Below are positions 55,358-60,624 of a DNA stretch of 64,000 nucleotides, piece by piece. Numbering within the stretch: the first letter of the stretch is position 1; each line of letters opens with the position of its first letter. A program made the translations under genes and the position numbers. The stretch is taken from assembly GCF_003991155.1 (NCBI RefSeq), contig NZ_CP031293.1. The stretch is one strand, 5' to 3'. Under the pieces are notes generated by a model, which saw nothing but the letters and a program-made list of their open reading frames with translations, was not told the DNA's origin and did no database searches. The stretch comes from Escherichia coli. Its GTDB lineage: Bacteria; Pseudomonadota; Gammaproteobacteria; Enterobacterales; Enterobacteriaceae.

Positions 55358-55386
55358 AGATTAAAACTATGGTTGTTTTTAGTCAA
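55358..55386 (-). promoter_or_regulatory. PR promoter (rightward early, drives cro)
   Basis: Minus strand TTGACT-17 nt-TAATCT, embedded in the 25-bp inverted repeat ATGGTTGTT-N7-AACAACCAT (55369-55393). Confidence 0.6.
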
Positions 55387-55399
55387 CAACCATTTTCGT

Positions 55400-55428
55400 T
55401 TGATGGAATAAAACCTTGGTTGTACATT
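55400..55428 (+). promoter_or_regulatory. PRM-like promoter giving a leaderless cI mRNA
   Basis: TTGATG-17 nt-TACATT. The -10 hexamer ends 6 nt before the cI ATG at 55435. No SD upstream of cI. Confidence 0.5.
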
Positions 55429-55434
55429 TGGTCT

Positions 55435-56124
55435 ATGAAAACAACACTCTCAGAAAGACTTAAAGAAGCCAGATCAGCGCGAGGCCTTACACAAAAGGCA
55501 CTTGGGGATTTGGTTGGGGTTAGCCAGGCTGCTATTCAGAAAATCGAAACAGGGAAAGCTAACCAAACAACTAAAATCGTGGAGATCGCGAACGCTTTGG
55601 GTGTGCGCGCAGAATGGTTATCTTCTGGCATTGGAAATATGTCAGACAGTACAGTGCAACCAATACAATCAACTCTCAGCCATTCCAAATACTTCAAGAT
55701 TGACGTTCTTGATATAGAAGTCAGTGCTGGGCCGGGAGTCATCAACCGTGAGTTTGTAGAAGTTCTACGCTCGGTTGAGTACTCGTTTGACGATGCTCGT
55801 CACATGTTCGATGGTAGGAAAGCGGAAAATATCCGCATCATTAACGTGCGTGGTGACAGCATGTCAGGAACGATCGAACCAGGTGATCTGCTGTTCGTTG
55901 ATATCACTGTTAAATCTTTCGACGGTGATGGTATCTATGCGTTTCTGTACGACGACACAGCCCATGTAAAGCGCCTGCAAATGATGAAGGATAAGCTGCT
56001 GGTCATCTCTGATAACAAAAGCTACTCACCGTGGGACCCGATCGAGAAAGACGAGATGAACCGGGTGTTCATCTTCGGTAAGGTTATTGGGAGCATGCCG
56101 CAGACGTACAGGAAACACGGATAA
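55435..56124 (+). CDS. cI: CI-type prophage repressor (HTH plus S24/LexA-like autopeptidase)
   Basis: Trimmed to MKTTLSERLKEARSARGLTQKALGDLVGVSQAAIQKIETG. The C-terminus has VRGDSMSGTIEPGDLLFV...AHVKRL (Ser/Lys dyad). Confidence 0.85.
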   Translation: MKTTLSERLKEARSARGLTQKALGDLVGVSQAAIQKIETGKANQTTKIVEIANALGVRAEWLSSGIGNMSDSTVQPIQSTLSHSKYFKIDVLDIEVSAGPGVINREFVEVLRSVEYSFDDARHMFDGRKAENIRIINVRGDSMSGTIEPGDLLFVDITVKSFDGDGIYAFLYDDTAHVKRLQMMKDKLLVISDNKSYSPWDPIEKDEMNRVFIFGKVIGSMPQTYRKHG

Positions 56125-56204: not shown

Positions 56205-56474
56205 ATGAGTGATAAAAAACTTATTAAAAAATCAAATAACTGTGTAGATGCATATGCTGATGCATTTGGATATTCATCTTTTGGGGAAGATGACGATCGC
56301 TTAGGCTCCATATCTTTCTTTCAGCATGTTACAGAATGGGACGCTGATGGTAGTAATGACACTGAAAGCGTAAAGTACAACATTGCAACAATTCGCATGA
56401 CGGAAGATTTAATGCTTAAACTCGCTGACTTTATTCGCGATCAGCATGATAGAGCTAAAACCAATAAGTCATAA
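56205..56474 (+). CDS. 89-aa acidic hypothetical protein downstream of cI
   Basis: GGAAAGG SD. Same strand as cI. AT-rich. No recognised motif. Confidence 0.5.
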   Translation: MSDKKLIKKSNNCVDAYADAFGYSSFGEDDDRLGSISFFQHVTEWDADGSNDTESVKYNIATIRMTEDLMLKLADFIRDQHDRAKTNKS

Positions 56475-56482
56475 TATTAACA

Positions 56483-56923
56483 ATGAAATACGGTTATTAC
56501 GAAGCTCCAAACCTAACTGAAAAGCTTGAACAAGCGGCAAGATCATCATCTTTGCACACCGCAGCATTTTCTCAATCAGCTGGTATGTCTGGCGATAATG
56601 TACCTATGCTACAATCAAGTGGTAGCGGTGGCTCTGGGAGTAATAATGTGCTTGAATCAAAAGTTGCAAAGCTTGAGTCTGATGTGTCCTACATCCGACG
56701 TGACGTTGATGAGCTTAAGACAGATGTCAAATCTATCGACAGAAACATGATCGCTGTTCTGGAGCGACTCGATTCAATAAAAGAGTCACTAGCCAAAAAA
56801 CCATCCATCGATGCTATCGATAAAAAGATTTCAGACGCAAAGCTTGCGGTATTGCTTGGTGTTCCAGCAATCATCGCTGCAGGAACAGGGCTTTATAAGC
56901 TATCAATGTACTTTTTTCTTTAG
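56483..56923 (+). CDS. 146-aa tail-anchored coiled-coil membrane protein of unknown function
   Basis: Gly/Ser linker SSGSGGSGSN, heptad-like LESKVAKLESDVSYIRRDVDELKTDVKSIDRNMIAVLERLDSIKESL, and C-terminal TM LAVLLGVPAIIAAGTGLYKL. Confidence 0.55.
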   Translation: MKYGYYEAPNLTEKLEQAARSSSLHTAAFSQSAGMSGDNVPMLQSSGSGGSGSNNVLESKVAKLESDVSYIRRDVDELKTDVKSIDRNMIAVLERLDSIKESLAKKPSIDAIDKKISDAKLAVLLGVPAIIAAGTGLYKLSMYFFL

Positions 56924-57002
56924 TGCTTAAGAAACTGCTCGCCACCTCGCATTAGGCAAAGCGATTTTTCATTCCCTATTACCCTTTCTTAACCAATCAT
57001 CT

Positions 57003-57031
57003 AAACCCGGCCCCGTGCCGGGTTTTCTTTT
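57003..57031 (+). terminator. Rho-independent terminator ending the cI-side transcription unit
   Basis: AACCCGGC-CCCGT-GCCGGGTT followed by TTCTTTT. Confidence 0.75.
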
Positions 57032-57158
57032 GCCCTCCCCTCATCACACACACCGTTAAAAAAACCACCATAACCTCGCTTCAGTTATCGCTATGCGATT
57101 CAAGTCACAAAATAAATCCATCCTAAATACAACCAGTTATATCTAAAACAACCAATAA

Positions 57159-57202
57159 AACAACTTTTGTTGTTGACGATAAAACAACTATAGTTTTAAA
57201 TA
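57159..57202 (+). promoter_or_regulatory. PL promoter with OL operators
   Basis: TTGACG (57173)-17 nt-TTAAAT. AACAAC-TTTT-GTTGTT palindrome at 57159-57174. The spacer AAAACAACTATAGTTTT nearly repeats the PR spacer. Confidence 0.6.
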
Positions 57203-57274
57203 AGTTCATCGCAACAACACAACGATACGGCAACCACCTGATTCACCGTTGCGATGACCGCTTAGATCCGCAGC

Positions 57275-57685
57275 TTGAATTTCAGCAGGCTCCGGGGAGT
57301 GCGAGGGGTGAAGCGGACGCGTGAACGTCGGTGTGACCAGCTGAAATCAACTCAACACTTCATACCTCAGTCGCTTCAACGAGGCGGCTTAGTTATGACA
57401 ACCGGCGGCCATCCACCGCCTGAATACGCGCAGAAGTCTCTATATGTTCAGCAGCCCAGCTTACGGGCAGGAGTTTTTATGGTTCATCAACATTACGGTA
57501 CGCAGACCGTTAATCGCGGTGCGGTCATGCCAGGAATGCTGGTCAAACACAAAGATGGTACCTGGACTGCATCGGCTAATTTACGCGGACGGCTTTATCT
57601 GCATCGCGGCGTCGAGCGCACTTATACCCGTGACTTGCTCGTGGAAATTTTTCTCGACGGACGCGGCAACGGCCTGAATCACTAA
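57275..57685 (+). CDS. ORF in the N position; possible N-like antiterminator, start uncertain
   Basis: First ORF after PL. Arg-rich [13 protein letters not shown] resembles N-type ARMs, but only TTG/GTG starts (57275, 57299, 57308) include it. ATG options at 57395 and 57479 exclude it. Confidence 0.3.
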
Positions 57686-57760
57686 TCCCCTTTCCTGTTT
57701 TCCTAATCAGCCTGGCATTTCGCGGGCGATATTTTCACAGCCATTTTCAGGAGTTCAGCC

Positions 57761-58057
57761 ATGAACGCTTATTACATTCAGGATCGTCTTGAGGCTCAGA
57801 GCTGGGCACGTCACTACCAGCAGATCGCCCGTGAAGAGAAAGAGGCAGAACTGGCAGACGACATGGAAAAAGGCCTGCCCCAGCACCTGTTTGAATCGCT
57901 ATGCATCGATCATTTGCAACGCCACGGGGCCAGCAAAAAAGCCATTACCCGTGCGTTTGATGACGATGTTGAGTTTCAGGAGCGCATGGCAGAACACATC
58001 CGGTACATGGTTGAAACCATTGCTCACCACCAGGTTGATATTGATTCAGAGGTATAA
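57761..58057 (+). CDS. gam: Gam (RecBCD inhibitor, 98-aa GamS form)
   Basis: [44 protein letters not shown].... The upstream extension of lambda long Gam is interrupted by an in-frame TAA. Confidence 0.95.
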
Positions 58058-60526: not shown

Positions 60527-60624
60527 ACATGAAAAGCAAAATCATCAGGGAGCTACAGGCTCCTTTTTTATTGTTCGCATTCATCCTCAAGCGTATTAAC
60601 CAACAATTCAGGGATTAATGGAAG

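Follow-up and report, generated by a model that had tools for sequence, protein, structure and literature searches.

A probable untranslated leader with a conserved hairpin pair upstream of kil in an N-less lambdoid prophage of Escherichia coli

Introduction

What lies between the leftward promoter PL and gam in a lambdoid prophage in which N is not recognised, and does an arginine-rich open reading frame in the N position stand for a divergent N? The question is raised by an N-less lambdoid prophage of Escherichia coli that is integrated at argU, beside tRNA-Arg(UCU). It lies in a stretch of 64,000 nucleotides, which is called the window here; the plus strand of the window runs in lambda's leftward direction. 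An initial annotation, made from the letters alone, had placed an N-like arginine-rich motif inside a structured leader at this point, and had proposed a divergent N with a non-canonical start, a put-like RNA element or an unrelated small protein.

The interval is, in our reading, the start of the PL operon, and consists of an untranslated leader of ~270 nt (57209-57478), then an ordinary kil gene, then gam-bet-exo. The leader has a family-specific 5' portion (part A) and a two-hairpin element (part B, 57360-57420), which is likely a translational operator. We put the probability of this reading as a whole at roughly 0.78. The RefSeq annotation used for comparison was that of NZ_CP029747.1 (E. 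coli 2016C-3878), and the leader alignment comprised 39 distinct variants.

The early-left operon

The gene order is cro-like, cI-like, two genes in the rex position, a terminator, PL, leader, kil, gam, bet and exo (Table 1). The start of the predicted PL transcript, as read from the sequence, falls at ~57208-57209. PL nearly duplicates the PR promoter/operator upstream of cro, and is absent from the output of a strict consensus promoter scan. In phages of a second immunity type (4A7 and Perceval) homology starts at 57209, with TATTAT at the same -10 position, while in a third immunity type (L053/O157) it starts near 57242, ~35 nt further in, the first ~35 nt being replaced. Of the two genes in the rex position, the second, which may have an exclusion function, gave only weak matches to coiled-coil families, and the C-terminus of its product looks hydrophobic in translation.

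The whole 270-nt leader is present in 2230 of 5426 complete E. coli genomes (~40%). Perceval, a phage with the same leader, forms plaques and is therefore viable (PMC9928086). No feature is annotated over 57209-57478 in the records listed. Further along the early-left operon, on the plus strand at 60547-60575, is a good intrinsic-terminator-like site (AGGGAGCTACAGGCTCCTT followed by TTTTATTGTT), which lies upstream of DksA-like, xis and int genes in a phage without recognisable N or put.

Table 1. Coordinates of features in the window and, in the last line, of a compared RNA
Feature	Position	Strand	Description
cro-like gene	55330-55100	-	
cI-like gene	55369-56124	+	
rex-position genes	56205-56474 and 56483-56923	+	between cI and PL; phrog_4231, phrog_3556
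terminator	57003-57035		upstream of PL
predicted PL	57173-57201	+	-35 TTGACG 57173-57178, 17-nt spacer, -10 TTAAAT 57196-57201
leader part A	57209-57358	+	family-specific 5' leader, non-coding; starts at predicted PL start; CA-rich 5' end 57212-57223, arginine-rich reading 57293-57349, weak hairpins 57267-57296 and 57313-57332
hairpin 1 (part B)	57360-57398	+	helices UCAUA/UAUGA, CU/AG, AGUCGCUUC/GAGGCGGCU; buries GAGG 57381-57384 and AUG 57395
hairpin 2 (part B)	57404-57420	+	GGCGG-CCAUCCA-CCGCC
leader frame from masked AUG 57395	57395-57478	+	MTTGGHPPP...; no stop, in frame into kil, giving 96 aa
kil	57479-57685	+	68-aa KilR-family predicted FtsZ/cell-division inhibitor; AGGAG 57469-57473, 5 nt ahead of ATG
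gam	57761-58057	+	Pfam PF06064 Gam, E = 3.4e-65; RefSeq agrees; followed by bet and exo
KilS	4003-3906 of L154 (E. coli K-12 Rac)	-	annotated

The arginine-rich reading frame

The open reading frame that suggested an N is real, and runs from a TTG at 57275 to 57685 (136 aa). It had been described as the only one between PL and gam, which is not strictly so because another frame holds a 77-aa ATG ORF at 57444-57677. The 19-aa arginine-rich translation of its 5' part, including RTRERR, can be read as reported; no in-frame ATG precedes it, and in-frame GTGs are found at 57299 and 57308. The ribosome-binding sequences of these starts had been called poorly spaced, and for GTG 57308 this is untrue because GGAG at 57295-57298 sits 9 nt upstream. 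The in-frame ATGs at 57395 and 57479 were confirmed together with their GAGG and AGGAG sequences.

The arginine-rich extension is non-coding. Among the 39 leader variants, a C to T change at 57368 places an in-frame TAG in 15, a 5-nt insertion after 57346 shifts the frame in three, and a 1-nt insertion after 57304 does so in one. The substitutions in or beside the arginine motif include R to C (within RTRERR), G to E, V to G and R to W, and over the extension roughly 11-12 changes are nonsynonymous and 5 synonymous by our own classification of the listed variants. Diversity is flat across the codon positions (0.034/0.022/0.044), with no codon periodicity. When the upstream 68 aa were compared with 5.8 billion proteins, 38 matches were returned, nearly all of which span only the last 28 residues; the three that span the arginine motif are all rearranged or aberrant gene calls. 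A tblastn search of the same residues against phages gave only family members and the shared MTTGGHPPP segment. No homologue of N was found (Pfam, 0 matches; PHROGs and NCBIfam, Kil only; 5.8 billion proteins), nor any N-like PHROG in either early operon.

The likeness of the motif to the arginine-rich region of N is itself no more than expected by chance. Of dinucleotide shuffles of the leader, 11.5% encoded 7 consecutive residues of which at least 5 were basic, together with a segment holding at least 4 R, and 13% reached the basic-residue criterion alone. Of the window's 270-nt tiles, 9% satisfied both criteria. The 136-aa ORF would thus be an artefact, the kil frame being open by chance upstream through the leader, and RTRERR would be a chance reading of a G+C-rich leader stretch.

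The partner sites of N are equally hard to find. The leader has no boxA, and hence no nutL; the region's only boxA comes after cro. This boxA is of the consensus rrn type (CGCTCTTTAACAA; 55087-55075, minus strand) and is conserved in phages of the same immunity. A boxB-like hairpin (GACTG-ATTAA-CAGTC) stands beside it at 55062-55042, is the product of a 12-nt tandem duplication (TTAACAGACTGA), and is absent from IdasGreatGrand and its relatives. A nutR after cro was considered and rejected: its boxA is real, and the adjoining hairpin is a local, strain-specific duplication. Phage 4A7 has the same leader, yet neither boxA nor the boxB-like hairpin after cro. The boxA after cro could serve boxA-only, Nus-factor antitermination in the right operon. 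The locus thus resembles the lambda N/nut system in having a leader site right after PL, an arginine-rich stretch and a consensus boxA after cro, and differs from it in that the ORF is not conserved, the leader lacks boxA, the boxB-like hairpin is strain-specific and there is no homology to N.

The reading in which translation at TTG 57275 or GTG 57299/57308 yields a divergent N, or a short peptide rich in arginine, therefore has a probability close to nil. It would profit from the place of RTRERR in the N position, from the GGAG 9 nt ahead of codon 57308 and from the fact that this codon is ATG in 6 of the 39 variants, and a 31-aa version is entered as a hypothetical protein in one phage record, but the stop, the frameshifts, the changes within the motif, the lack of codon periodicity, the missing homologue and boxA/boxB partner and the appearance of the motif in about one in eight shuffles all speak against it. 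Lambda N has NusA- and RNAP-binding regions, which a peptide of 20-31 aa would be without. The record in question is IdasGreatGrand (L001, 2675-2770), which carries the TAG-57368 variant and in which the arginine-rich ORF was annotated automatically; the entry is probably a spurious call.

kil and its start

The last 68 codons of the frame, from ATG 57479, encode a Kil of the KilR family, and the statement that kil is absent is therefore wrong; of the possibilities first proposed, the small protein unrelated to N was the correct one, for the 68-aa product. It matches PHROG_294 'Kil' (E = 7.7e-37) and NCBIfam NF008465 'FtsZ inhibitor protein' (E = 5.8e-17, profile positions 1-70 of 73), the latter with 61.5 bits against a curated cutoff of 92, which marks it as a family member and not as the equivalog of K-12 KilR. 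By BLASTP it aligns residue 1 to residue 1 with the 73-aa Rac KilR (34% identity, E = 1e-12), and from residue 1 over all 68 aa with the 68-aa HK639 Kil (37% identity, E = 8e-16). The RefSeq CDS WP_061092790.1 covers exactly 57479-57685, with nothing annotated over the leader, and diversity within kil is 0.059-0.076 at third codon positions against 0.004-0.013 at positions 1 and 2. These comparisons establish both the identity of kil and its start at 57479.

The position of the gene fits as well. Like Kil of the Rac, HK639 and phi80 type, it lies upstream of recombination genes in the early-left operon: the window has the order kil-gam-bet-exo, and Kil stands beside gam and the recombination genes in the annotated phage records compared, among them HK639, 4A7, Perceval and KO-TP1. 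It differs from Rac KilR in scoring below the NCBIfam cutoff, and its inhibition of FtsZ is predicted by homology; by the same token Kil, like Rac KilR, would stop induced cells from dividing. The window's Kil is not known to be related to the 47-aa lambda Kil.

Related phage records name the gene 'Kil' with three different starts (68, 96 and 139 aa), which shows uncertainty among annotators and not a longer protein. The 96-aa calls are explained by the frame of AUG 57395, which in this phage family happens to enter kil. In most relatives the same AUG opens an ORF of 16-21 codons, and the frame in which a conserved downstream motif (GCGCAGAAGTCT) is read changes from phage to phage, all three being represented. 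Codons 2-4 are hit by deletions of 1 and 2 nt, the family variants L050/L122 do not share the frame of kil, and diversity over 57395-57478 (0.020/0.004/0.010 by codon position) is not coding-like.

Since the frame is kept in most variants of this family, AUG 57395 with its invariant GAG could yield a genuine 96-aa isoform. Kil might then be made from AUG 57395, alone or along with the 68-aa form, with hairpin 1 controlling the start; we consider this unlikely. It would account for the invariance of GAG(G) and AUG while the remainder of hairpin 1 covaries, and several gene callers chose 57395, which is in frame with kil in most family variants. On the other hand, L050/L122 (a 2-nt deletion) and L162 (a 1-nt deletion) lose the frame with kil intact, in other phages the ORF ends before the next gene, neither KilR nor HK639 Kil has anything that corresponds to the 28 extra residues, and the codon positions between 57395 and 57478 do not vary as those of a coding sequence. 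Translation of kil from 57479 remains the preferred reading.

A two-hairpin element in the leader

Covariation and stability show that hairpin 1 is real. In a comparison of 37 distinct sequences, pairing is kept in 96.6% of its cells (97.3% for both hairpins together), and seven pairs are altered on both sides, in 80 cells; controls in which the structure was slid along the alignment were 28-50% paired. Its stability exceeds that of shuffled sequences (z = -4.48; 0 of 200 shuffles as stable), and the structured region 57360-57420 gave z = -4.5 and -3.9. Neither the GAG(G) nor AUG 57395 varies, and both are base-paired within the hairpin. Hairpin 2 is kept in loci that were retrieved via hairpin 1 alone, and shows one compensatory variant (GGCGC...GCGCC) beside wobble variants that are still compatible with pairing.

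The ~60-nt part B is common to phi80, HK225, HK639 and prophages of Enterobacter, Klebsiella and Citrobacter. Among the other loci fetched, most have a variable gene followed by an intrinsic (tL1-type) terminator directly ahead of it. In HK639 (L152, 33132-33104) the counterpart of hairpin 2 has a trailing U-run and carries a terminator annotation; hairpin 2 of the window has no such U-run.

The structured leader of the initial annotation thus stands for 57360-57420, and does not for part A, for the region of the proposed stem or for the leader as a whole, which fold no better than shuffles. The comparison of covariation in homologous leaders that had been suggested as a check had a similarly divided outcome, with hairpin 1 changed on both sides of seven pairs and part A showing no compensatory change.

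Part B is most likely a translational operator. Hairpin 1 would hide a site of ribosome entry ahead of the toxic kil, and part B would limit the entry of ribosomes onto the leader, and so Kil synthesis and possibly the access of Rho. In its design it resembles operators that bury a Shine-Dalgarno sequence and AUG, such as the MS2 replicase operator and RNA thermometers: the GAG(G) and AUG are paired and invariant, and other pairs covary. It is unlike them in that the frame behind AUG 57395 is not conserved, and the likeness is one of design only.

Non-coding RNA in the leader of a kil gene has a precedent in KilS, an sRNA derived from the 5' UTR upstream of Rac kilR (PMC8175672), which serves as an example that kil leaders can carry RNA functions. 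No sequence similarity was found between the leader and Rac KilS or the kilR 5' UTR, and KilS ends in a hairpin and U-run, which we read as an intrinsic terminator, whereas the leader is without one. The svsR sRNA of NC-SV prophages was also compared and set aside as unrelated, because it sits at the 3' end of cI.

The 5' portion of the leader

Part A is of a different kind. It is no more stable than its shuffles (z = -0.44; whole leader, z = -0.52), and its sub-windows give differing folds. Its variants differ by only ~3%, with changes that are wobble-compatible and never compensatory, with 1-nt and 5-nt indels inside it and the TAG at 57368 just downstream. The long-range stem proposed for this region exists as complementarity between 57275-57286 (TTGAATTTCAGC) and 57340-57350 (GCTGAAATCAA), with one bulge, and as a fold does no better than shuffles (z = +0.31). 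Nucleotide diversity is 0.043-0.059 where third codon positions of gam and kil are compared, and 0.027 in part A; this rate of about half hints at a function, and the value is close to the 0.033 of the kil-gam spacer.

Searches with part A found little beyond the family. An nhmmer search with a part-A profile against ~240 related loci returned no weak homologues, and no homologue was found outside the phage family. None of 4227 Rfam models matched over the leader (56900-57800 gave only noise, E ~1-10), and the sole match in a gathering-level Rfam search of the whole window was tRNA-Arg. By blastn-short there is no second copy of part A in the window that could be an analogue of putR. The PL leader and the region just after cro do share two short motifs of 15 and 13 nt, CGCAGCTTRAATTTC and AATCAACTYAACA, with their order preserved (57269-57283 / 55109-55095 and 57345-57357 / 55069-55057); the motifs were not found in the PR region of 4A7.

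The proposal of a put-like RNA was examined with a profile HMM and a covariance model, built from HK022 putL and putR, the putL-like RNA of HK639 (as given in the HK639 GenBank annotation) and relatives from at least 27 fetched loci, with 10 put sequences in the model. In the window, nhmmer gave no match at E <= 10, and the best score of the covariance model was 5.5 bits (E ~4), outside the leader. With no model match, no stability signal and no compensatory change in 57209-57358, a put-like element finds no support. RNAs of the HK022/HK639 put type are common among phages that carry part B, and were seen in L018, L021 and ~25 further loci.

Alternative functions of part A

Two other roles for part A can be weighed against that of an ordinary untranslated leader. 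It may be a processive antiterminator RNA of a new class that works in cis, replaces N or put and acts on RNAP leaving PL; 57209-57358 would then be an unrecognised RNA for terminator read-through, and part B a second, separate regulatory RNA module. We regard this as quite improbable. It is the position of part A alone that makes a new RNA class conceivable here, and a new antiterminator RNA is possible because putL fills the slot elsewhere, the family is viable without N, and a terminator-like site lies inside the operon (60547-60575), but there is no positive sign of one. In L018 (6154-6237) and L021 (8564-8481) an HK022/HK639-type putL lies precisely between PL and part B, abutting the latter. 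Part A also begins at the predicted transcription start under two immunity types, the third joining ~35 nt in; HK639 shows that a single put in the left operon can suffice; and diversity is below that of third codon positions. Like HK022 putL/putR and the putL-like RNA of HK639, then, part A stands at the 5' end of the PL transcript, in putL's slot, in a phage without N. It differs from them in that no match in sequence or structure, no stability signal and, among variants only ~3% apart, no covarying two-stem architecture was seen: the best put score falls outside the leader and nhmmer gave nothing, the folding energy equals that of shuffles with folds that differ between sub-windows, compensatory changes are not seen, neither a second copy in the window nor a weaker relative in the fetched loci was found, the L053/O157 type has another sequence in place of the first ~35 nt, and the diversity of 0.027 is near that of the kil-gam spacer. 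If the antiterminator were real, an RNA would stand in for N or put in a lambdoid family whose leader is in ~40% of complete E. coli genomes.

Alternatively, the 5' end of the PL transcript could pair with the sRNA GcvB, as target or sponge, and so link leaky or induced PL transcription to GcvB, which appears very improbable. The CA-rich tract CAACAACACAAC at its 5' end is complementary at all 12 positions to GcvB nt 72-83, a segment that we take to lie within the G/U-rich R1 seed. The tract is the only such site in 64 kb. On the predicted transcript it spans +4 to +15, which the folding predictions leave unpaired. A prophage-encoded anti-GcvB RNA, AgvB, provides a precedent (PMC4104026). Yet the match is a post hoc observation, it is ~255 nt away from the kil start, it is missing in the L053/O157 leader variant, and the tract may be just an unstructured 5' end. 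An anti-sRNA of the AgvB type itself was rejected, AgvB being located 3' of PR' and not at PL. The interpretation we retain is that of an untranslated leader, with a probable regulatory element in part B.

Implications

For annotation, the start of kil is fixed at 57479, where existing records give 68, 96 or 139 aa. Finding an arginine-rich ORF where N would stand does not count as evidence for N, and a tempting misreading is corrected here. A very common and viable lambdoid family of E. coli without N, put or nutL raises the question of how its early-left operon meets terminators. The conserved hairpin pair is the only new item in the leader: a strongly covarying hairpin, absent from Rfam, that buries a Shine-Dalgarno sequence and AUG at a mosaic junction of many enterobacterial prophages.
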